From contig JBFRWG010000063.1 in assembly GCA_051439445.1 (NCBI GenBank), forward strand, positions 1 to 31,401: a stretch of 31,401 nt of DNA, given 5' to 3'. Position numbers and translations under genes: made by a program. The notes below the pieces were generated by a model that did not search any database, was not told the origin of the DNA, and saw only the letters and a list, made by a program, of their open reading frames with translations. The DNA comes from Crocosphaera sp. (GTDB lineage Bacteria; Cyanobacteriota; Cyanobacteriia; Cyanobacteriales; Microcystaceae). This document shows, one piece after another, positions 1,703-29,453 of the stretch. Numbering within the stretch: the stretch's first letter is position 1; each line of letters begins with the position of its first letter.

Positions 1703-3796
1703 ATGAACAATTATTTATTATTTAAACAAGTCATTAAACTGATCATTATTTTCGGCTTAACTGTAAGCTTTATATTAACTAGGCCAACCCCTAGTATAGG
1801 ACAAATGTCTCTCTTTACAGCACCGACAAAAAATCCCAGAACTGAAACACCACCTTGGGATCTAAATCAGGCTTATACTTGTGGAAGATTTTGGTGTAGT
1901 AATGTTCATATTTATGATGATACTGCTAACTTCAGAAAGACTTTATTGACTCCTGAATTAACGGTAGCAGCCTTAAAAAAGCTAAATCAACCTCTAGAAA
2001 TTCCTCAAGAATTAGAGCAACGAGCAAAATTAATTGAAGGTGTTTTTAATAGCATTTTTCTGAATATTATTGAGCAAGAAAATATTAAAGAAGATAATTA
2101 TATACAAGAGGATATTCAGTTTTGGTTACCAAAAAGTTTAAAAAAATTGTTTAATTTTTCTCAAATAAAACCTTATCATCCTTGGACACCACAAGTTGAA
2201 ATTGGCATGAGAAACAATCACACAGTTATCTATACTCCCGAACAATTTGAGTTAGGCATTCCAGCACAAACAATTGTTACAGTAACTTCAATAGATGCGA
2301 AAGCCAATAGAACAACTATTGATAAATTAGCAAAAAATTGGCAAAGAGCAATTCGTTTATCTTTCAGCACTGCTTTTTGGGGATATGAATTTGATCGGAA
2401 ATATTTTGGGTTACGATGGGTTAATGCAGCTATAATTTTAGTGATTACATTGCTCATTATAGGGTTAATTGAATTTTTCCAAACCTTCATTAAAAAATAT
2501 ACTAATCATCTCAGACATGAACTGCAAAAACTGACTAAGGAAATGGCAGTTTATGGTGAAGCAATTGGTTCTAGTAATCATCGGATATCTGTTGATTTTG
2601 AGCAGGTTTCAGAGCCATTAGATAAGGAAAGGATTGAAAAACAGAAAAATCACAAAAAATTGATCAAAAAAATAAAAGTGTTTTTAAAAATTTTCATGAT
2701 TCCATATATTAGTATTAGAAAACTAATAAAAAAAAATAAGTGGCTATATTCTACGTTAAAGCATTCTCAACAAAAGCTATTTTTAAGACAGCAAACTTGG
2801 ATTAAACAAAAGAGTAATTTTAGTAAATTGCTACTCAGTATCTTGTTATTGTTACAACTATTAACGATGGCTTTTGGCTTAACAATAATAATATTTATCT
2901 TTCGCTCAACTCGCTTTTTTTCAGTCTATCTTCTAGGAGAAACAACAATTTTAATTGTCTTCTGGATTAGCTTAATTTTAGTCGATAAAATCTTAGATTT
3001 TATTGTTGATTATAGTCTTAATCGTTGGGCAAATGAAGCCCAAATTATTAATCCTGAATCTAATCGCTATACCTTACGAATTAATACTTATTCTGTTACT
3101 CTTAAACAAGGGAAAACTTTTATTATTTTGATTTTAGGATTTTATAGTAGTATCTGGTTAATAGGGTTTAATCCTTCTGTGTTAGCTGGAGCAGGAATTT
3201 TAACAGTTGCTATTGCTTTTTTGTCTCGAAATTTATTAGAAGATATGCTCAATGGTATCTTAATTTTATGGACTGATCGCTATGCTATTGGTGATGTTAT
3301 TGATGTGAATGGGATGGGAGGATTAGTTGAAAATATTAATTTATTTGTCACTTCTTTACGGAATTTAGATGGACAAGTGATTGCAATTCCTAATAGTAAA
3401 ATTTCCACAGTTATTAATCATACTAAAGATTGGTCGAGAGTTAATTTGACGATCAAAATTGCTTGGCATGAAAACATTAAAAAAGCGATAAAAATTATGA
3501 TTCAAGTCGCTCATGAAATGCAAAATGAAGCAGAATGGAGTTATAAGTTTCTGGAACCTTTAGAAGTTCTAGGGGTTGATGAAGTTTCCCATGAAGGGAT
3601 ATTAATTCATATTCTAATTAAATCTAAACCTAGTGAACATTGGTCTGTTGGTCGAGAATTTCGCTTACGAGTTAAAGAAGCATTTGACAAGGAAAATATT
3701 ACTTTGGGAATTCCCCATCATACAGTTTCTCTTATCAATAATTCTGATAAAAGTGATCAATTATTATCTTATAATGTTCCCAAAGAAGACAATTAA
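1703..3796 (+). CDS. Large MscS-family mechanosensitive ion channel with an extended N-terminal (periplasmic) domain
   Basis: C-terminal third carries the MscS core (FLSRNLLEDMLNGILILWTDRYAIGDVIDVNGMGGLVENINLFVTSLRNLDGQVIAIPNSKISTVINHTKDWSRV). Several hydrophobic TM segments precede it, and there is an N-terminal signal/anchor (LIIIFGLTVSFIL). Starts 33 nt after the upstream gene. Paralog at 14164..16293. Confidence 0.9.
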   Translation: MNNYLLFKQVIKLIIIFGLTVSFILTRPTPSIGQMSLFTAPTKNPRTETPPWDLNQAYTCGRFWCSNVHIYDDTANFRKTLLTPELTVAALKKLNQPLEIPQELEQRAKLIEGVFNSIFLNIIEQENIKEDNYIQEDIQFWLPKSLKKLFNFSQIKPYHPWTPQVEIGMRNNHTVIYTPEQFELGIPAQTIVTVTSIDAKANRTTIDKLAKNWQRAIRLSFSTAFWGYEFDRKYFGLRWVNAAIILVITLLIIGLIEFFQTFIKKYTNHLRHELQKLTKEMAVYGEAIGSSNHRISVDFEQVSEPLDKERIEKQKNHKKLIKKIKVFLKIFMIPYISIRKLIKKNKWLYSTLKHSQQKLFLRQQTWIKQKSNFSKLLLSILLLLQLLTMAFGLTIIIFIFRSTRFFSVYLLGETTILIVFWISLILVDKILDFIVDYSLNRWANEAQIINPESNRYTLRINTYSVTLKQGKTFIILILGFYSSIWLIGFNPSVLAGAGILTVAIAFLSRNLLEDMLNGILILWTDRYAIGDVIDVNGMGGLVENINLFVTSLRNLDGQVIAIPNSKISTVINHTKDWSRVNLTIKIAWHENIKKAIKIMIQVAHEMQNEAEWSYKFLEPLEVLGVDEVSHEGILIHILIKSKPSEHWSVGREFRLRVKEAFDKENITLGIPHHTVSLINNSDKSDQLLSYNVPKEDN

Positions 3797-7171: not shown

Positions 7172-8233
7172 ATGACAACCACCATACAAAGCCAAAATCC
7201 TTCCCTCTGGGAACGGTTTTGTCAGTGGATAACTAGCACTAATAACCGCTTATATATCGGCTGGTTTGGCGTGATTCTTATCCCCACATTATTAACCGCA
7301 ACCATCTGCTTTATCATCGCTTTTATCGCTGCGCCTCCCGTTGACATCGATGGTATTCGCGAACCCGTTGCCGGCTCCCTGCTCTATGGAAATAATATTA
7401 TTTCTGGTGCAGTGGTTCCTTCTTCCAATGCGATTGGGTTACACTTCTATCCCATCTGGGAAGCAGCATCCCTTGATGAATGGTTGTACAATGGCGGTCC
7501 TTATCAGTTAGTCATTTTCCATTTTCTCATTGGTGTTTTCTGCTGGATGGGAAGACAATGGGAACTATCCTATCGTTTAGGAATGCGTCCCTGGATCTGT
7601 GTTGCTTATAGCGCACCTGTATCTGCCGCTACTGCTGTATTCTTAATCTATCCCATTGGACAAGGTTCCTTCTCCGATGGAATGCCATTAGGTATCAGTG
7701 GAACCTTTAACTTTATGTTTGTGTTCCAAGCAGAACATAACATTTTGATGCACCCCTTCCATATGTTGGGTGTTGCAGGTGTCTTCGGTGGTGCTTTATT
7801 CTCTGCCATGCACGGAAGTTTAGTCACCTCCAGTTTAGTTCGTGAAACAACGGAAACCGAGTCCCAAAATTACGGTTATAAGTTTGGACAAGAAGAAGAA
7901 ACCTATAACATTGTGGCTGCTCATGGTTACTTTGGTCGTTTAATCTTCCAATATGCTTCCTTTAACAATAGTCGTGCTTTACACTTCTTCTTAGGAGCGT
8001 GGCCGGTTATTGGTATTTGGTTTACTGCCATGGGAGTCTCCACCATGGCCTTTAATCTCAATGGATTTAACTTTAATCAATCCATTTTAGATTCACAAGG
8101 TCGTGTGATTGGCACTTGGGCCGACGTTCTCAACCGTGCAGGGATTGGTATGGAAGTGATGCACGAACGCAATGCTCATAACTTCCCCTTAGACTTAGCT
8201 AGTGGTGAACAGACTTTAATTGCTAAACGTTAA
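7172..8233 (+). CDS. psbA: Photosystem II reaction-centre protein D1 (Q130 / D1:1-like form) with a short C-terminal extension
   Basis: Near-identical to canonical D1 over its whole length (…[63 protein letters not shown]…[23 protein letters not shown]…[16 protein letters not shown]). Mn4CaO5 and cofactor ligand positions are present (D170, E189, H190, H198, H332, E333, H337, D342, A344 in standard numbering). Confidence 0.98.
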
Positions 8234-11696: not shown

Positions 11697-13988
11697 TTAA
11701 AACCTCATCTTTTCCCTAGCATAGTCTAAAATTAATCTTTTTTCTACACGGGCGATCGCCTCATAAGTAGTTTCAACAGCTTCAGGTTCAACAGAGATAT
11801 GGGTGATTCCCCATGAGACTAAATGCTCAATTATATTAGTAGAATTAACCACAATTTGACCGCAAATGGAACTGGGTATTTGTAGTCGTTTAGCTTCTAA
11901 AACTAGCTGTTTTAAAGCATTAAAAACAGCAGATTGATAAGCAGAAGAAAAATGTTCACCGTAGATTTTATTCCGTTCTATTCCTAATAATAAGGGAATT
12001 AAATCATTCGTGCCAATGGCAATCCCTTGAACCCCTGCTTTCACATAATTCGAGAGTTCAAAAATAACGGAAGGTACTTCTGCCATGATCCATACTTGAA
12101 AATCAGGAGAAGCAGTTAATTGAAACCCTTTAATTAACTCAAGGGACAAGCGAAATTCATCAACTGTTCTCACAAAAGGCAAAATAATATTAAGATTGTT
12201 ATACCCTTGTTGTTGCACTTGTAATAAAGCTTGTAATTCCAAGCAGAATAGGTTTGAATCAAGACAATACCCTGCTGTTCCTCTGCGATCTTGATCAACT
12301 GAAAACTTATCATCAAAGGTTCGGTAAAAAATAGGACAAGGGGCAAAAAAATCAGCAAATTCAGTTATTCTTTGTGTCAGTTTAGCAATGATATTTTGCT
12401 GTTGAGAATGACGAAGCCATTCCTTTAAAGGTTGAGGCGTACATAAATCTAATAACATTAATTCTGAACGAACCAAACCTAATCCATCTAAGGGTAAACC
12501 CATAACTTTTTTTAAGGAACTGGGTTGACTTAAATTAACCATTAATCTAGTCCCAATGGGATAATTAAAAGCTGTTGATCGAGATAACAAAGGTTTTTCA
12601 AGGCTCATTTTTTCTTCATTTAATGTATTCAAAGAAATAGTGCCTGTATCTCCATCAAGTAGGATAGAATCTCCTGTTTGTAACCAACTGGTTGCCCCAG
12701 GAATACTCACCACAGCAGGAATACCTAGCTCCCTGGCTAAAATAGCTGCATGACTCGTAATTCCACCTTCTTCTGTAATGATTCCTGATGCTTGTTTGAG
12801 GGAAGATAGTTGAAAGGGATGAATTTTTTGAGCAACAATAATACCCTTGGTTAACTCAGTTGAATCACTGTTGTGATCAAGGAGATGAACAATACCTTGA
12901 ATCCTTCCTGGAGATGCAGCAACCCCTTGTAACTGGGATTGGGAGCTAGCAGTGATGGTTGCTGGTTTTGTCTCTTGAAATGACAGATTATAAGGAGATT
13001 GAATTAATTGCGTGATTGCTATTTGTGGCGATGAATCTTCAGCAGAATGGTAGCATATCCATTCTAAAGAAGACCAATCCATGAAAGATTTTTGCAACTT
13101 TTTATTAATTTGAAATATTTGAGAAATACCCTCAGTATCTAAGCAGTATTCATCCTGCTGCCTAGGGCTGACTAAATAAGATTCTAAACAATTTTTATCT
13201 GTTATTTTATTATTTTTTAACCGATAGGCACAAGGCTTTTTGCCTATTTTTTTCTCAATAATATCCCCCGATAAACTATTTATTTTCCAGTAATCCGCTA
13301 AGATTTTTCCTTGAAGTAAACTATGACCTAAACCCCAGTTTCCCTGTATTTTAATAGAGTTATAATGATTAATACTCACACCAGAAGAAATTGCGTCTAC
13401 CATCGGTTGTACTAGAATTGCTAAGTTTAACTGTTCAATTTTAATACCAAGACGTTGCCAATAAAACAAACTTTTTGCATTTAGCAATTGGCTCCAAATT
13501 TCCTTAATTGCTATTTCTAAATTTTCACCAATATTCCAGCAAACTTGCGCAGGAGCTAAACCAGAAATATCTTGATTTCGTGAGAAATTTCCACTTAAAG
13601 AAGTTCGGAGAATCAATGAACTACTATCTAACTTTGCTGTTGCTTGTTCTAATAGTTCTTTCCAGTGATCAGGGAATGATAAACTTAAAATAGACTGACG
13701 ACTTTGCTGGGCAACGGACTGTAATATTCGAGGATTATCTACGTCTAAATGAAGAGATGACTCTGGAAAATCTGCTAGTAATGAATTCACATCATTCAAG
13801 TTTTCTAAAAACGCTTTAAATGTGTTTGAACTAATGACAAAACCAGGAAAAATAGGATAGCCACTTTGCAGAAGCTGGCTCAATGTCCATGCTTTTTCCC
13901 CAATAATAGGACGAATTTGGGGGTTAACCTCAGACAGCCAATAAAGCTTAATCACTGTAATAACAAAAACCCTAAATGCAACTAACAA
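11697..13988 (-). CDS. PEP-utilizing enzyme family protein (PpsA/PPDK-like three-domain architecture; often annotated as a putative PEP-binding protein)
   Basis: N-terminal PPDK_N-like region (IGEKAWTLSQLLQSGYPIFPGFVISSNTF), central swivel phosphohistidine motif (GGITSHAAILARELGIPAV) and C-terminal PEP-utilizer TIM-barrel motif (GIAIGTNDLIPLLLG). The likely true start is GTG at 13955 (VIKLYWLSE…), 11 codons inside the maximal ORF. Confidence 0.85.
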   Translation of the reverse strand: MLVAFRVFVITVIKLYWLSEVNPQIRPIIGEKAWTLSQLLQSGYPIFPGFVISSNTFKAFLENLNDVNSLLADFPESSLHLDVDNPRILQSVAQQSRQSILSLSFPDHWKELLEQATAKLDSSSLILRTSLSGNFSRNQDISGLAPAQVCWNIGENLEIAIKEIWSQLLNAKSLFYWQRLGIKIEQLNLAILVQPMVDAISSGVSINHYNSIKIQGNWGLGHSLLQGKILADYWKINSLSGDIIEKKIGKKPCAYRLKNNKITDKNCLESYLVSPRQQDEYCLDTEGISQIFQINKKLQKSFMDWSSLEWICYHSAEDSSPQIAITQLIQSPYNLSFQETKPATITASSQSQLQGVAASPGRIQGIVHLLDHNSDSTELTKGIIVAQKIHPFQLSSLKQASGIITEEGGITSHAAILARELGIPAVVSIPGATSWLQTGDSILLDGDTGTISLNTLNEEKMSLEKPLLSRSTAFNYPIGTRLMVNLSQPSSLKKVMGLPLDGLGLVRSELMLLDLCTPQPLKEWLRHSQQQNIIAKLTQRITEFADFFAPCPIFYRTFDDKFSVDQDRRGTAGYCLDSNLFCLELQALLQVQQQGYNNLNIILPFVRTVDEFRLSLELIKGFQLTASPDFQVWIMAEVPSVIFELSNYVKAGVQGIAIGTNDLIPLLLGIERNKIYGEHFSSAYQSAVFNALKQLVLEAKRLQIPSSICGQIVVNSTNIIEHLVSWGITHISVEPEAVETTYEAIARVEKRLILDYAREKMRF

Positions 13989-14163: not shown

Positions 14164-16293
14164 ATGAATACAGCTAATTTTATGAGGAGTTTTTATCTTC
14201 TGACAGACCTTTGCAAATCAATCAAGACTCATATCAGACAACAAATACTTCCGAGACTCACTGAGGGGAAATACTTATCAATCCTATGGAACAATTGTAT
14301 GAGAGGGTTTGTCGTCCGCAGTTTTATCCTCTTCTTAACAACCCTGCTGATTAGTATCACTTGGACACCGATAACCGTAGGACAACTCCCTGTGCTTAGT
14401 GCCTCCAATAATAGCAGTATTAAAACGGAAACTCCCTGGTGGGATGTCAACAAAGCACAACGTTGTGGACGACTGTGGTGTAGTGAGGTTCATTTATTTG
14501 GAGGTTTGGACAAAATTTTTAAGGTTGCTGTTGACAATCCTGACGATGCTGCTGTTAAGGTTGAAGAAAGGGCTAGGAAGATACAAACCATTTATGATTC
14601 AATTTATGATCGGGTTCGCCAGTCTGAATTCATGCTTCAAGATCATCTTAGCACATCGACCTTTGGTGCGATTAAGAATTGGCAGAATTTATTTTTTAAT
14701 CGAGATAAGTTAGGAAAACATCCTGCTACACCAAAAATTGAAATTGGAATTAGAAATAATCAAACTGTTGTTTTTGTTCCCCGACAACTTGAGTTAGGGT
14801 TATCAGCACAAACGATTGTAACAGTTAATCGTGCTGATCAGCTTCATCAAGGGAAATTAATTGATGATATTGCGCAAGAATGGAGAGGATTAATTTCTGA
14901 TAGTATTAATCAGGCACTTTGGGCTTATGAAATTGATCAATCTTATCCCTTTGCTAGAGTAGGAATAGCCATTATTCTTGTCTTTCTTCTTGCCATTCCT
15001 TTAATTATTATAGGGGTATTTCGTCACATTTTAAAAATTTGGAATCGCTATCTTCGTCATCAATTAAGAGAATTACAAGAAGCCTTAACTATTGATGCAG
15101 AATCTTTGGCTTCTGAAGAATTCTCTACCTCAGATATTATAGATGAAACGGCTGAAAATAGACCTAGTAATCATCAAATTACTAGGCTGAATAAACAAGA
15201 AATATTAGAAGTTTTTAAAAAAATAATTCATAGGCCCAATAAAGCCTTAGCTAAAGCCAGACAAATCGTTGAAAACACGGTTCAAAATCTGAGTCATAAC
15301 TTGCCCAATTTATCATTAAAAAGACAAGGGATTATTAAACAACAGCAAAATATTGCTCAATTATTTCTAGGATTATTTTTTTGGATACAAATCTTTCTTA
15401 TTTTCTTAGCGTTGACATTAATTGTTTTACTATTTCCTGAAACTCGTCGTTATACTTATTTCTTTTTAGGACAATCTATCGCTATTCCTTTAATTTGGAT
15501 GTCCGCTAATATAGGGGATAAATTGAGTAATTTGTTAATTGATTACTCTCTTAATAAATGGGCGAGAGAAGCACAATTAATTAACCCAAACTCTAATCGT
15601 TATACCTTACGAGTTAGCACCTATTCTAATGCTCTAAAAAGTGGCTCAACCTTTCTTTTTATAGTTATTGCTACAGCAGTAACTGTTACGTTTCTAGGCA
15701 TTGATTTAACTGTATTAGCCAGTGTAGGAAGTGTGGCTTTTGTCTTTGCATTTTTATCTCGAAATGTAGTAGAAGATATGCTCAATGGGATCTTAATTCT
15801 ATGGACAGATCGTTATGCCATTGGGGATGTGATTCAAGTGGGAACTGTCTGCGGATTTGTCGAAAATATGAACATTTATATAACACAAATTAGAGGTTCA
15901 GAAGGACGTTTAGTCACCATTCCTAATAGTAAGATTTCTATTGTTGAAAATTTAACTAAAGATTGGTCAAGGGTTGAATTTAAAATAGAAATTGCTTATG
16001 ATGCTGATGTCAGAAAAGCATTAACTGTCATTAGTAAGGTAAGTGAAGAAATACAAAAGGATCCTATCTGGAAAGATAAAATTATTGAACCGCCCGCTAT
16101 TTTAGGGGTTGATAATGTTTCCCATCAAGGCATCTTAATTCAAGTTTGGATTAAAACACAAGCAATGCAACAATGGGCCATAGGACGAGAGTTTCGCTTA
16201 AGGGTAAAAGAAGCTTTTGAAATAGCAGGAATTAAATTAGGTATTCCTCATCAAGAAGTTAGATATCAAGCCTATTCTTCCATAGATAATTAA
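14164..16293 (+). CDS. Large MscS-family mechanosensitive ion channel, paralog of 1703..3796
   Basis: MscS core FLSRNVVEDMLNGILILWTDRYAIGDVIQVGTVCGFVENMNIYITQIRGSEGRLVTIPNSKISIVENLTKDWSRV. N-terminal domain motifs are shared with the first copy. By alignment to the paralog the real start is probably ATG 14299 (MRGFVVRSFILFLTTLL…), 45 codons inside the maximal ORF. Confidence 0.9.
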   Translation: MNTANFMRSFYLLTDLCKSIKTHIRQQILPRLTEGKYLSILWNNCMRGFVVRSFILFLTTLLISITWTPITVGQLPVLSASNNSSIKTETPWWDVNKAQRCGRLWCSEVHLFGGLDKIFKVAVDNPDDAAVKVEERARKIQTIYDSIYDRVRQSEFMLQDHLSTSTFGAIKNWQNLFFNRDKLGKHPATPKIEIGIRNNQTVVFVPRQLELGLSAQTIVTVNRADQLHQGKLIDDIAQEWRGLISDSINQALWAYEIDQSYPFARVGIAIILVFLLAIPLIIIGVFRHILKIWNRYLRHQLRELQEALTIDAESLASEEFSTSDIIDETAENRPSNHQITRLNKQEILEVFKKIIHRPNKALAKARQIVENTVQNLSHNLPNLSLKRQGIIKQQQNIAQLFLGLFFWIQIFLIFLALTLIVLLFPETRRYTYFFLGQSIAIPLIWMSANIGDKLSNLLIDYSLNKWAREAQLINPNSNRYTLRVSTYSNALKSGSTFLFIVIATAVTVTFLGIDLTVLASVGSVAFVFAFLSRNVVEDMLNGILILWTDRYAIGDVIQVGTVCGFVENMNIYITQIRGSEGRLVTIPNSKISIVENLTKDWSRVEFKIEIAYDADVRKALTVISKVSEEIQKDPIWKDKIIEPPAILGVDNVSHQGILIQVWIKTQAMQQWAIGREFRLRVKEAFEIAGIKLGIPHQEVRYQAYSSIDN

Positions 16294-24636: not shown

Positions 24637-24792
24637 TCTTATCAAATCACCAGAATGGGGGCTGTAACAAAAGTTTATATATTTTTGTAACATTACTTAA
24701 AAAAAAAGAAACCATCCCAGGTATTATGGACTATGGATTTTTTAACCTCGCTGTCCTTAAATATTAATCATTGGCTAAATTTAGGAGAAAAC

Positions 24793-24912
24793 ATGGAGTT
24801 ATTAGCTGCACTCAATTTAGAACCGATTTTTCAATTAACCTTTGTTGGGTTGATCGTCATTGCAGGTCCGATCGTCATTGCTCTGTTAGCGTTTCGAGGG
24901 GGTGATCTCTAA
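24793..24912 (+). CDS. psb30: Photosystem II protein Psb30 (Ycf12), 39 aa; absent from the ORF track
   Basis: Hand translation gives [39 protein letters not shown]. This matches the Ycf12 pattern …(V/I)xAQLTxxxxIxxAGPxxIxLLAxRxGNL: a single TM helix with a basic/Gly C-terminus. GGAG Shine-Dalgarno 8 nt upstream, and a terminator follows. Confidence 0.8.
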
Positions 24913-25088: not shown

Positions 25089-25748
25089 ATGAGCAGTGAT
25101 CACAGTGCTGAATTGCCCCTTTGGGTACAAGATCGCAATACGGTCTTAGATCATGATAAAGGAGTTAAATGGCGAAATGGAGAAAAGCCAGACTATTCCC
25201 ATACAGACCAATTTTTACACAAAGAAAGCAAGTACAATCACCCCCCAGGATCATTAGAGGCGATCGCCCAAAATTTAGTGAGAACCTTTGAAATGGAAGC
25301 GTCTCATAAAACTGATCCTCAACAATGGTTATCCATTGTTGCTGATAAGTTTCAAATGAGTAGTAATGGCGGCCCTATGTATAGCGCACAAGATGTAAGT
25401 GATCAAGGCACTTATAATCTTTTTATTGATAAAACCCCAGGTTATGATCCCACCGCAGAAGATTTTCAATCCTCGTTTGAATTGTTTCATAAAGCTTTTC
25501 CCAATGGTTTCTTATGGGAACTAATTGAGGTGTTATCTGGACCGCCAAATGTGACGTTTAAATGGCGACATTGGGGAACCTTTAGCGGCCCATATAAAGA
25601 CTATCAACCCACGGGAGAAACCATTGAAATTAGGGGTATGAGTATTGCTAAAGTCACAGATAATCTAAAAATCATCTCAGTTGAGCATTATTTTGACAAT
25701 AGTACCTTTCTTAAAAAGTTGACCTCTGGTTGTCCTTTTCATCAATAG
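25089..25748 (+). CDS. SnoaL-like / NTF2-fold protein resembling plant 'pathogen-related protein' homologs
   Basis: 219-aa soluble protein. The C-terminal half, …FKWRHWGTFSGPYKDYQPTGETIEIRGMSIAKVTDNLKIISVEHYFD, has the SnoaL-like polyketide-cyclase pattern. The assignment is from memory and of modest strength. Confidence 0.5.
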   Translation: MSSDHSAELPLWVQDRNTVLDHDKGVKWRNGEKPDYSHTDQFLHKESKYNHPPGSLEAIAQNLVRTFEMEASHKTDPQQWLSIVADKFQMSSNGGPMYSAQDVSDQGTYNLFIDKTPGYDPTAEDFQSSFELFHKAFPNGFLWELIEVLSGPPNVTFKWRHWGTFSGPYKDYQPTGETIEIRGMSIAKVTDNLKIISVEHYFDNSTFLKKLTSGCPFHQ

Positions 25749-25962
25749 TTGAATGGTTTATGACAATACTGTGTAGGTTTTGCTTGGAAACCACTTGATC
25801 AAGGTAGTTGAGAATGAAGAATGTAGAGTGAGCAGAAAAATTAATTCTATATTCTACATTACTCAATATTTTTCATTCTCAATTTTTGCTGCTTCCGGCC
25901 CTTCTTTCTAGTTTAGCAAGGTAATATAATCAATATATAAGTCACAACTTTCAATACAAGAT

Positions 25963-26070
25963 ATGGTTAAAATTATTCGTCGTCAATCCCTAGGAACACG
26001 GGATGTCTATGACATTGGAGTGGCCAAAGATCATAACTTTTTACTAGAAAATGGACTAATTGCCTCTAAC
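25963..26070 (+). other. Split DnaE intein C-terminal fragment (IntC, 36 codons)
   Basis: Close match to remembered Npu/Ssp IntC (MIKIATRKYLGKQNVYDIGVERDHNFALKNGFIASN|CFN). The terminal Asn codon ends at 26070 and the Cys+1 codon tgt is at 26071..26073. Confidence 0.9.
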
Positions 26071-27321
26071 TGTTTTAATAAATCCCATTCTACTGCTTAT
26101 GCTTATGTCACTTATCAAACAGCTTATTTAAAAGCCAATTATCCTGTGGAATATATGACAGCATTACTAACAGCTAGTAGTGATAGTCAAGATAAAGTGG
26201 AAAAATATCGGGAAAACTGTCAAAAAATGGGTATTGATGTTTTACCCCCTGATATCAATCATTCTCAAAAAGATTTTACACCCATTGGTAAACAAATTTT
26301 GTTTGGTTTATCGGCAGTTAGAAACTTAGGAGAAGGTGCAATTGATACCATTTTAAAGGCCCGTGAAGAAGCAGAAGGAGCGTTTAAATCCCTAGCGGAT
26401 TTTTGCTCTTATGTTGATTTACGATCTGTTAATAAAAGGGCTTTAGAAACCTTAATTTATTCCGGCGCATTTGATTCCATTGACCCTAATCGAAAACAAC
26501 TGATTAATGATTTAGAATTAGTCATTGCCTGGTCCCAAAAACGGGCAAAAGAGAAAGAAAGTGGCCAACTCAATTTGTTTGATTTAATGAGTGGACAAAC
26601 CGAGGAAACAACCGCATCAAATACGGATTTTCAACACGCACCTCGTTCTTCCCCTGTAGAAGATTATTCATTACAAGATAAACTAAAATTAGAAAAAGAA
26701 CATCTAGGATTTTATGTTTCTGAACATCCCTTAACAGCTATCAAAAAAGCTGCAAAAATTTTATCCCCTATTAACTTAAATGAAATAGCAGAACAAAAAG
26801 CCAAAACAAAAGTAAGTGCTGTCATTATGGTTAATGAAGTTAAACAATACATAACTAAAAAAGGCGATCAGATGGCTTTTTTGGTTTTAGAAGATGGTTC
26901 AGCCCAAGTAGAAGGGGTTTGTTTTCCTGAAAGTTATAAAAGAATTCGAGAGATTTTAACAGAAGATTCTCGTCTTATTGTTTGGGGAAAAATTGACTAT
27001 CGAGATGATAAAGTACAGTTGATTGTAGATGATGCTGAACCGGTAGAAACTGTGAGAATGGTGATGGTAAATTTAAGTTTTGAACAAGCAGTCAACCAAG
27101 TTGCTTATCATAGTTTGAAGGGAATTCTTCAACAATATTCTGGGGATAAAAATCAAGGTAAAATACCGGTAATTGCCATTATTGGTAATGGACAAAATCG
27201 GCAATTAATTCGTTTAGGTCAAGATTATTGGGTACGGAATGAAACCTCTGTTATTCAAGCTCTTAAAAAAGCGAATTTTAATGCTTATCCCACCCCTTTG
27301 GTGAGTGATTTATCATCATAA
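25963..27321 (+). CDS. dnaE: DNA polymerase III alpha subunit, C-terminal half (DnaE-C), preceded by a split-intein C-fragment
   Basis: aa 1-36 [36 protein letters not shown] correspond to the DnaE IntC, followed by the +1 Cys extein [34 protein letters not shown]… The remaining 416 aa include an OB-fold region (…[40 protein letters not shown]…). Confidence 0.93.
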   Translation: [452 protein letters not shown]

Positions 27322-27352: not shown

Positions 27353-28459
27353 ATGAATGCTTGGTTTTCTCGCCCTCAGAAAATTTTAGTTACTTGGCTA
27401 CTAATTTTAGTCACAGGTTGGTTAACAGTTAAGACATTGAGTTACATTGGTGGCTTAATTAGTTTAATTTTAACCGCTTCTTTAATCGCTTTTTTATTGA
27501 GTTATCCTGTGCGCGCTCTTAAAAAAATTATTCCTCGTTCTTTAGCTGCTACTTTAGTTTATTTAGGCGCAATTTTACTGGTAACTTTTTTAGCAATAAC
27601 CCTTTTACCACCTGTGGTCAATCAAGGGAAACAACTAATTACTAAATTACCTAGTTTATTAGAAGAAGGACAACAACAATTGATAACATTACAAGGAGCA
27701 ATTAATACGAAAAACTTACCCATCGATCTTGAGTTTTTGACATCCCAAATATTAACTAAAATAGAGGCACAAACCAAAGATATTGCTTCTACGAGCTTTG
27801 GTTTAGTATTAGGAACCTTTAATTGGTTTATCGATTTAATTGTTGTTATCGTTATTTCTTTTTATATGTTACTGGATGGGGAAAAAATTTGGCGGGGTGT
27901 AATAAGCTTTTTTTCCCCTCAAGTTCGTGGCGTTTTAACCATTACCTTAGAAAAAAATCTACAACGATTTTTTACCGGTCAATTACTCTTAGGTTTATTT
28001 ATGGCCGTTACCCTAACCGTTGCTTTTCGACTATTAGGAATTCCCTTTTTTCTCCTCTTTGCTGTTTTTATCGGGGTGATGGAAGTTTTACCCTTTATTG
28101 GTGCAACTTTGGGAATTGGTACTGTTACTATTATTTTAACGTTTATTAATTGGTGGTTGGCAATACAAGTATTAGTTATTGCGGTTATTATTCAACAAAT
28201 TAAAGATAACTTAGTCGCCCCTCGAATCATGGGAAATCTCACGGGACTCCCTCCAGTGGTAATTTTTATTGCTTTATTACTTGGCGCAAAAATTGGCGGT
28301 TTATTAGGGGTTATTCTTGCTATTCCTTTAACCGGAGTGATCAAAGGAGTAACAGAAATTATTGGTGATCCCACTTTACCTCCCCAAACCGGTAGTCTAT
28401 TTTATAATCCCTTTTCTAAACTCCCCACAGTGGAAACAGAGATTGAGGAAAGTTTTTGA
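27353..28459 (+). CDS. AI-2E family transporter (PerM/UPF0118)
   Basis: Polytopic 368-aa membrane protein. …FYMLLDGEKIW…, …GVMEVLPFIGATLG… and …IKDNLVAPRIMG… are hallmark AI-2E/PerM segments. Confidence 0.85.
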   Translation: MNAWFSRPQKILVTWLLILVTGWLTVKTLSYIGGLISLILTASLIAFLLSYPVRALKKIIPRSLAATLVYLGAILLVTFLAITLLPPVVNQGKQLITKLPSLLEEGQQQLITLQGAINTKNLPIDLEFLTSQILTKIEAQTKDIASTSFGLVLGTFNWFIDLIVVIVISFYMLLDGEKIWRGVISFFSPQVRGVLTITLEKNLQRFFTGQLLLGLFMAVTLTVAFRLLGIPFFLLFAVFIGVMEVLPFIGATLGIGTVTIILTFINWWLAIQVLVIAVIIQQIKDNLVAPRIMGNLTGLPPVVIFIALLLGAKIGGLLGVILAIPLTGVIKGVTEIIGDPTLPPQTGSLFYNPFSKLPTVETEIEESF

Positions 28460-28645: not shown

Positions 28646-29200
28646 TCAATCAGAACCTCCTGGAAGAGATAAAGGGATATTTAAACCCCGATCATAGATA
28701 ATAATATCCCATTGTCCTGAACGGTTAGACTCAAAGGCAATTAAACGACCATTCCCACTAATGGTAGGATGACGCACTTCTCCTAAGATATTTTTAGTAA
28801 TGTTGTTAGCTTGTAAAGTTTGGCGATCGTAAACAAAAATATCTTGTTTTCCTTCTTGCTCGGAAACATAAACGATGTAACGTCCGTCTGCACTAATATC
28901 AGGTTGGTCTTGTACGGTTCCGGGCTGATTTAATCCCGGTAAAGGTAATAACCGACCGTTGATTTGATCATACAGCAAAACACTACGCTTTCCTTGGCGG
29001 TCAGAGGCAAAAACTAAGTATTTACCCTCGTAAGAAAAACGCGGATGTTGTTCGGAAGACCGAGTATTTAAGGTATTTCCCAACGTTTGAATCGGAGGAG
29101 TAATAAACCCTGAGTTAGTACAACCGACTAAACTAAAAACAATACTGCCACTTAAAAGCTTAGGATAACGACTCAACCCTTTAGGAAGCAACTTCACCAT
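28646..29200 (-). CDS. PD40 (TolB-like beta-propeller repeat) lipoprotein
   Basis: Three PD40 repeats (PRFSYEGKYLVFASDRQGKRSVLLYD, PDISADGRYIVYVSEQEGKQDIFVYD, PTISGNGRLIAFESNRSGQWDIIIYD). With start ATG 29200 the N-terminus MVKLLPKGLSRYPKLLSGSIVFSLVGC is a lipoprotein signal with lipobox LVGC. The maximal ORF extends to 29230. Confidence 0.8.
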   Translation of the reverse strand: MVKLLPKGLSRYPKLLSGSIVFSLVGCTNSGFITPPIQTLGNTLNTRSSEQHPRFSYEGKYLVFASDRQGKRSVLLYDQINGRLLPLPGLNQPGTVQDQPDISADGRYIVYVSEQEGKQDIFVYDRQTLQANNITKNILGEVRHPTISGNGRLIAFESNRSGQWDIIIYDRGLNIPLSLPGGSD

Positions 29201-29453
29201 CAGAGGGAAGCAAACAACAATTAACATCATTGAGGCAAACTTTACCCCATTGTAATCCCCAGCGAACCAACTCTACACGATTTTCCGTTTTGGTTTTGGT
29301 CAAAATATTGCTGATATGATTATCAACAGTACGCTTACTAATCTCAAGTTTCTGGGCAATTTCCAGATTAGTCAAACCAGTTGAAACGAGATCGAGAATT
29401 TGCATTTCTCGGCCAGATAGAGACACAGGGTTTTGAAACTTGGCACTGGTCAT
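29181..29453 (-). CDS. pedR: Small LuxR/GerE-type HTH regulator, PedR (Ssl0564)-like, with a C-terminal Cys cluster
   Basis: GerE HTH motif: LSGREMQILDLVSTGLTNLEIAQKLEISKRTVDNHISNILTKT. It is 90 aa with Cys73, Cys79 and Cys80 (KVCLNDVNCC), the positions I recall for the redox-responsive regulator PedR of Synechocystis. Confidence 0.65.
   Translation of the reverse strand: MTSAKFQNPVSLSGREMQILDLVSTGLTNLEIAQKLEISKRTVDNHISNILTKTKTENRVELVRWGLQWGKVCLNDVNCCLLPSDGEVAS

Follow-up and report, generated by a model that had tools for sequence, protein, structure and literature searches.

Naturally split DnaE inteins and the Crocosphaera locus

Split DnaE inteins, known since 1998, are striking in that protein trans-splicing produces a replicase on which the cell depends, and both protein ligation and dual-vector gene therapy now make heavy use of them. 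Natural split inteins consist of an N-terminal fragment (IntN) of 102-111 aa and a C-terminal fragment (IntC) of 35-36 aa (PMC2664965). A review (PMC11766414, citing Wu, Hu & Liu 1998, PNAS 95:9226) covers their capture-and-collapse and class 1 mechanisms and the rates measured for the DnaE inteins of Npu and Ssp. We analysed a 31,401-nt stretch of Crocosphaera sp. DNA (contig JBFRWG010000063.1 of assembly GCA_051439445.1; hereafter, the window) and found that one of its open reading frames (ORFs) is almost certainly dnaE-C, the C-terminal partner of a naturally split cyanobacterial DnaE intein system whose host protein is the alpha subunit of DNA polymerase III (Pol III). The locus is a standard, textbook naturally split DnaE intein of the type described from Synechocystis in 1998, ordinary for cyanobacteria and already present in public databases. 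An earlier note, made from the letters of this DNA alone, had also called the arrangement established biology, and this judgement stands: for each half, the arrangement occurs in every one of the 120 closest homologues listed. The locus adds one natural allele in a genus with inteins already catalogued. Its main use is better annotation, and it provides one more sequence for consensus-intein design. The dnaE-C product is 100% identical to NCBI entry MGK7939982.1, from a Crocosphaera sp. metagenome-assembled genome (MAG). The GenBank name of this entry goes no further than 'OB-fold nucleic acid binding domain-containing protein', and many sister MAG entries are likewise under-annotated.

The Ssp DnaE intein of Synechocystis sp. 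PCC 6803 (PDB 1ZDE and 1ZD7) resembles the window's system in the host protein, in the insertion point (...FAEY/CFNKSH...), in the placement of the two halves on separate genes, and in a 36-aa IntC that runs from Met1 of dnaE-C to a terminal Asn and is followed by a Cys at the first extein position (Cys+1). Window residues 1-41 align to 1zde_A with an E-value of 9e-12. However, the two IntC sequences are identical at 22 of 36 positions, the penultimate residue is Ala in Ssp and Ser35 in the window, and IntN is 123 aa long in Ssp (PMC11766414) versus 99-106 aa in the Crocosphaera clade. The Npu DnaE intein of Nostoc punctiforme (2KEQ, 4KL5, 4LX3) shares with the window its family, its junctions and the IntC end IASN (PDB matches with E-values of 1e-10 to 1e-9), and the IntN of the Crocosphaera clade has the Npu stretches ATKDHKFMT...MLPIDEIF. 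Here the IntC identity is 23/36, and the window IntC is less basic (+1 versus +3 for Npu, by our count). Judged from the sequences, the differences between this allele and the reference IntC sequences, which had been pointed out before, are real but trivial. The fast kinetics of Npu DnaE (1.4e-2 s-1; PMC11766414) are suggested for the window allele by shared residues but are not assumable.

C. subtropica ATCC 51142 (ACB54071.1 / ACB53425.1) and C. watsonii WH 8501 belong to the same genus as the window. C. subtropica is the closest cultured relative: its DnaE-C, likewise of 452 aa, shares 87% identity, and at its locus (L071) an AI-2E transporter gene follows with the same spacing of 31 nt as in the window. 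GenBank names the C. subtropica pair 'DNA polymerase III alpha subunit, C-terminal intein/extein' and 'N-terminal extein/intein'. In contrast to these likenesses, there are seven substitutions within IntC, the upstream neighbour is a glycosyltransferase gene in C. subtropica but a SnoaL-like gene in the window, and the window DnaE-C falls into a subclade (P0001-P0006) that is more divergent.

The dnaE-C product and its predicted splice junction

The dnaE-C product matches NCBIfam NF005616 (PRK07373.1) with 789.9 bits (E = 5.5e-238, cutoff 646 bits), aa 1-448 falling on positions 1-447 of the 449 in the model. NF005616 is the DnaE-C equivalog and models exactly such a short form. Within the N-terminal segment, the intein model TIGR01443 (intein_Cterm) is passed at aa 14-37 (28.9-33.8 bits, cutoff 15.6), and aa 1-43 match PDB chains of the Npu and Ssp DnaE inteins (5ol7, 1zde, 4kl5, 4lx3_B, 2keq and others; E = 2.5e-12 to 6e-9). 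The C-terminal splicing motifs of inteins (blocks F and G) are present, with D17, H24, N25, F26 and N36. The Asn36 codon (aac, 26068-26070) is directly followed by the Cys+1 codon (tgt, 26071-26073). Cys+1 is the nucleophile for trans-thioesterification. The reading frame is closed by a TAA at 25927-25929, 12 codons upstream of the ATG, and reading the sequence between this stop and the ATG at 25963 gave no ATG, GTG or TTG. Met1 is therefore the sole possible start, and the protein begins with the 36-residue segment. The earlier note had proposed an ORF with this start, opening with a DnaE IntC that ends in Asn before Cys+1 and continuing as the C-terminal third of Pol III alpha; its translation of 452 aa is exact, and the matches to intein and polymerase models agree with each part of that description.

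From residue ~34 on, the protein aligns with positions ~743-753 onward of the contiguous DnaE models NF005617, NF004226, NF005298 and TIGR00594, and a phmmer search against PDB sequences gave an E-value of about 1e-54 for the C-extein. The AlphaFold model of the product (mean predicted local distance difference test score, pLDDT, of 76) superposes in Foldseek on the C-terminal third of the Taq, M. tuberculosis and E. coli Pol III alpha subunits (4iqj_B, E 2.8e-27; also 2hpi, 3e0d, 7pu7 and 5fku). C-extein residue 2 aligns to residue 756 of E. coli Pol III alpha and to residue 813 of the Taq protein; the intein site is therefore equivalent to E. coli Tyr754/Gly755, just before FNKSH. The beta-strands at 283-360 in the model coincide with the OB fold found by Pfam (Table 1). 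Around the QLNLF motif, G201 and Q202 are invariant across 50 homologues, and N204, F206 and D207 are nearly so; by analogy with E. coli alpha, its role would be clamp binding. Over the first ~40 residues, modelled without the partner, IntC has a pLDDT of 44-50, which fits the disorder reported for lone IntC (PMC11766414).

Other assignments of the polymerase part were considered and rejected. As a contiguous Pol III alpha, the protein stays below the cutoffs of NF005617 (522.9 versus 1653 bits), NF004226 (355 versus 1002) and TIGR00594 (317 versus 434), and these models are covered only at positions ~743-1163. For the contiguous cyanobacterial form, NF005617 (PRK07374.1, 1170 positions), the C-extein aligns to positions 753-1163, and the score falls far below the cutoff because the protein lacks the first two thirds and has an intein fragment in front of the remainder. 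The error-prone DnaE2 model NF004225 was rejected at 87.1 bits versus a cutoff of 939.

We compared IntC with that of related proteins, using the 120 closest DnaE-C matches listed (residue counts, n = 119) and an alignment of 50 homologues for invariance. IntC is 36 aa long in 113/120. K3, D17, G19, N25, F26 and N36 are invariant and H24 is present in 118/119; the window allele keeps all of them. Cys+1 is invariant as well (50/50 aligned homologues, 120/120 listed matches). The only rare residues of the window IntC are T12 (15/119), R13 (8/119) and D14 (1/119), all within a stretch that varies in the family. Ser35 is penultimate here and in 109/119 homologues. Together with ATKDHKFM...M in the IntN of the clade, it is consistent with a fast, Npu-like intein, a lead that draws on the 'accelerator' residues (K70/M75/M81/S136). 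From two syntenic orthologues, the ratio of nonsynonymous to synonymous substitution rates (dN/dS) is 0.09 overall, 0.07-0.09 in the C-extein and 0.10 in IntC, which shows purifying selection; the last value, of the same order as that of the C-extein but noisy with 36 codons only, argues against decay.

The partner dnaE-N and alternative explanations

With Crocosphaera DnaE-N as query, tblastn over six frames returned no DnaE-N-like sequence in the window (best E = 0.55). The PHP, palm and fingers domains and IntN are absent from the window, broken forms included. A gene-free stretch of 214 nt (25749-25962) lies directly 5' of dnaE-C, and the gene that adjoins it on this side is the SnoaL-like one, which leaves dnaE-C without neighbouring N-terminal domains of Pol III. 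This upstream arrangement, too, is as first described.

The IntN of relatives was sought by a genome scan of a species-representative set and then by a DnaE-N protein search (best 120 matches). The IntN bait matches the chromosome of C. watsonii WH 8501 at 100% identity; against the protein database it gave short fragments of ≤170 aa only and no full DnaE-N. DnaE-N is present in 11/11 species genomes of the Crocosphaera/Cyanothece clade as an N-extein of 774-775 aa that ends in ...DLFEQMIKFAEY, followed by IntN and a stop. The junction in these 11 genomes reads KFAEY/CLSY(D/E)TEILTVEYG..., with an IntN of 99-106 aa. A dnaE-N whose IntN, of about 100-125 aa, begins CLSY(D/E)TE was what the earlier note had predicted; the prediction holds for the clade, while the gene of the window's own MAG was not retrieved. 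The relatives' DnaE-N score 1799-1837 bits against the DnaE-N equivalog NF007079 (cutoff 1525) and 51-52 bits against TIGR01445 intein_Nterm (cutoff 24.5). Cys1 and the block-B T-x-x-H are kept in every partner IntN examined, and the FAEY/C junction with an IntN of 97-120 aa occurs in 120/120 best DnaE-N matches. The N-exteins of relatives span positions 1 to ~748 of the contiguous DnaE models and the window C-extein begins at ~743-753; both exteins therefore tile a complete alpha of ~1190 aa. No contiguous dnaE product of ~1190 aa is found among the 120 listed matches of either half (DnaE-C 434-478 aa, DnaE-N 871-1039 aa). On the finished C. subtropica ATCC 51142 chromosome, dnaE-N (4,196,830-4,199,454) and dnaE-C (4,886,091-4,887,449) are separated by ~687 kb and share a strand, and in seven sister MAGs the two halves can be matched to each other by accession proximity (within the range of one genome).

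The net charge of IntN in the clade is -7 to -12, versus +1 for the window IntC. The divergent subclade that holds the window's DnaE-C is mirrored by an orphan DnaE-N subclade (P0222-P0224), which is 90-92% identical to other Crocosphaera DnaE-N and is likely the type of partner for the window DnaE-C. No shared assembly links the two (GCA_942491755.1 and GCA_049670165.1 versus GCA_013332655.1), so the link is suggestive only. IntN in the orphan subclade has K7 and Q52 and a net charge of -7. One could imagine, though we consider it highly improbable, that T12-R13-D14, A21 and E29 of the window IntC co-vary with this less acidic IntN, giving a charge-shifted interface that alters partner specificity or splicing rate. 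If true, the two would be a naturally semi-orthogonal DnaE intein pair with respect to other Crocosphaera DnaE inteins.

Relatives thus arranged suggest that the window's own genome carries a partner dnaE-N and that alpha is assembled from the products of two loci. From the established class 1 pathway, the residue conservation and the dN/dS values we infer that the two would be trans-spliced to a contiguous alpha. In this scheme, dnaE-N elsewhere in the genome would supply the N-terminal ~774 aa, comprising PHP, palm, thumb and the larger part of the fingers, with an IntN of ~99 aa attached to their end. This IntN, acidic and partly folded, would capture the disordered IntC, and the pair would collapse to one HINT fold. 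Cys1 of IntN would then undergo an N-to-S acyl shift, Cys+1 (Cys37) would attack the thioester to give a branched intermediate, Asn36 would cyclise to succinimide with release of the intein, and an S-to-N shift would form the peptide bond in ...KFAEY-CFNKSH.... The product would be a contiguous alpha of ~1190 aa, with the catalytic core from DnaE-N and with the helix-hairpin-helix (HhH) domain, the QLNLF clamp-type motif, the OB fold and the C-terminal domain from dnaE-C. The C-extein of 416 aa would account for 35% of such a 1190-aa spliced product (774 + 416).

Several observations count against the assignment to a split-intein system. The Pfam whole-domain intein model PF14890 is not reached (16.1-20.7 bits versus a cutoff of 35.8). 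A C-terminal HINT fragment would be expected to score this low, as the match is confined to the final 33 of the 155 profile positions (123-155), and a complete HINT/intein splicing domain was rejected on this threshold in favour of a split-intein fragment. Asp14 is unique among the 119 listed homologues, though it lies within the variable stretch. Finally, the dnaE-N of the window's MAG was not found by accession proximity: the DnaE-N entries of the same batch (MGK7878983, 7884351, 7958095, 7962345) are >18,000 from MGK7939982. This last point would also suit a reading in which the ORF no longer functions and is what remains of an old dnaE that was split or duplicated, with replication depending on a contiguous dnaE elsewhere. 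We hold that to be very improbable: the ORF is intact, with the low dN/dS values given above, all catalytic and invariant residues are kept, the NF005616 equivalog cutoff is passed, the locus is syntenic in relatives, and a contiguous form is missing in the clade among the listed matches of each half.

The halves of split inteins bind tightly before any chemistry (PMC11766414), and the fragments might accordingly be a non-splicing, mere non-covalent docking pair for two polymerase polypeptides. There is very little chance of this, as the residues that serve only the chemistry are invariant: Asn36, Cys+1 and, with the count given above, His24, as well as Cys1 and the block-B motif of the partner IntN. 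Orthologous inteins of the same genus also reportedly splice in vitro, the tested ones presumably being the Cwa and Csp inteins. As the source is a metagenome-assembled genome, a contiguous intein-containing dnaE might have been broken by misassembly or a frameshift, or by the gene calling. An artefact of this kind is exceedingly improbable given the in-frame stop 12 codons upstream of the start, followed further upstream on the same contig by non-coding DNA and the unrelated SnoaL gene, and given that no window frame holds DnaE-N-like sequence. L078, an independent assembly, and the finished chromosome of C. subtropica have the same architecture and neighbours, except that the upstream gene differs in the latter.

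The searches for dnaE-N and IntN also returned some unusual entries. P0309, a DnaE-N of 1039 aa from a Xenococcaceae MAG, is ~160 aa longer than all others and ends in a normal IntN of 105 aa; the extra length therefore lies inside the N-extein and could be a second insertion or intein. P0121, 'hypothetical protein OLS55_11690 [Escherichia coli]', has 100 aa, comes from a 4.66-Mb contig and is 84% identical to Crocosphaera IntN; most likely a laboratory E. coli strain carries here an engineered DnaE intein of the consensus type, rather than a gene native to the species. Contig JAAUUT010000053.1 (L037), labelled 'MAG: Candidatus Gracilibacteria bacterium', holds an IntN that is typical of cyanobacterial DnaE and 77% identical to the bait, probably through binning contamination or mislabelling.

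Genomic context of dnaE-C

Table 1. Features of the dnaE-C locus, in window coordinates
Feature	Position	Strand	Details
SnoaL-like gene, unrelated, 5' boundary	25089..25748	+	219 aa; Pfam PF07366 SnoaL, 37 bits (cutoff 28.4); orthologue at the same position in L078
Candidate -10 hexamer	25925..25930	+	perfect TATAAT, 33 nt upstream of the ATG; sequence read, inference only
dnaE-C	25963..27321	+	IntC 36 aa + C-extein 416 aa + TAA stop; 452-aa product
IntC, C-terminal fragment of split DnaE intein, aa 1-36	25963..26070	+	ends in catalytic Asn36
Cys+1 (Cys37 of the ORF)	26071..26073	+	C-extein residue 1, opens the conserved CFNKSH motif
C-extein, last 416 aa of Pol III alpha	26071..27318	+	end of fingers, HhH/beta-binding region, OB fold, C-terminal domain
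Helix-hairpin-helix domain, aa 90-180	26230..26502	+	Pfam PF14579 HHH_6, 107.6 bits (cutoff 25.6), full-length 1-90/90
QLNLF, beta-sliding-clamp-binding-type motif (Qxx[L/M]F), aa 202-206	26566..26580	+	pattern match
OB-fold nucleic-acid-binding domain, aa 290-360	26830..27042	+	Pfam PF01336, 49.9 bits (cutoff 27)
AI-2E family transporter gene, conserved neighbour	27353..28459	+	31 nt after dnaE-C; NCBIfam AI-2E-related matches

The window and the orthologous locus L078 share a common gene order: DUF4335, DUF3038, aldo-keto reductase, NmrA-like, DUF1997, Ycf12, SnoaL, dnaE-C, AI-2E transporter, PD40-repeat protein and GerE-type regulator. The AI-2E transporter gene is possibly co-transcribed with dnaE-C and lies outside the intein system. 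Upstream of dnaE-C, L078 retains the perfect TATAAT along with GTAATATAAT and the leader CACAACTTTCAA.ACAAGAT. A consensus promoter scan gave no full -35/-10 site on the + strand upstream of dnaE-C. Neither promoter-like sites (9 versus 10.9 ± 4.1 in shuffles) nor terminator-like sites (5 versus 2.2 ± 1.8) stand out, and tRNA and Rfam scans of the window had no matches. The intergenic region 5' of dnaE-C contains a weak 17-nt tandem repeat of 2.4 copies (ATATTTTACATTACTCA) at 25849-25887, and L078 likewise shows a GAATGAAGAATG-type repeat close by.

Elsewhere in the window, psbA is located at 7172-8233 and marks the DNA as cyanobacterial. Two large paralogous genes for MscS-type mechanosensitive channels (1703-3796, +, 697 aa; 14164-16293, +, 709 aa) encode proteins in which the MscS core is matched only in the C-terminal ~260 aa. 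The photosystem II gene Ycf12/Psb30 (24733-24912, +), with an orthologue in the same place in L078, is a 59-aa ORF when read from an upstream ATG; the true start is probably an internal Met. The 763-aa PEP-synthase-like protein encoded at 11697-13988 (-) scores well below the PEP synthase equivalog cutoffs (350 versus 598; 328 versus 740) and can be classed only broadly, as a PEP-utilising enzyme. On the 3' side of the locus, a 90-aa ORF for a GerE-type HTH regulator (29181-29453, -) overlaps the start of the 194-aa PD40-repeat ORF (28646-29230, -) by 50 nt, and both C. subtropica and L078 have the two ORFs overlapping in the same way.

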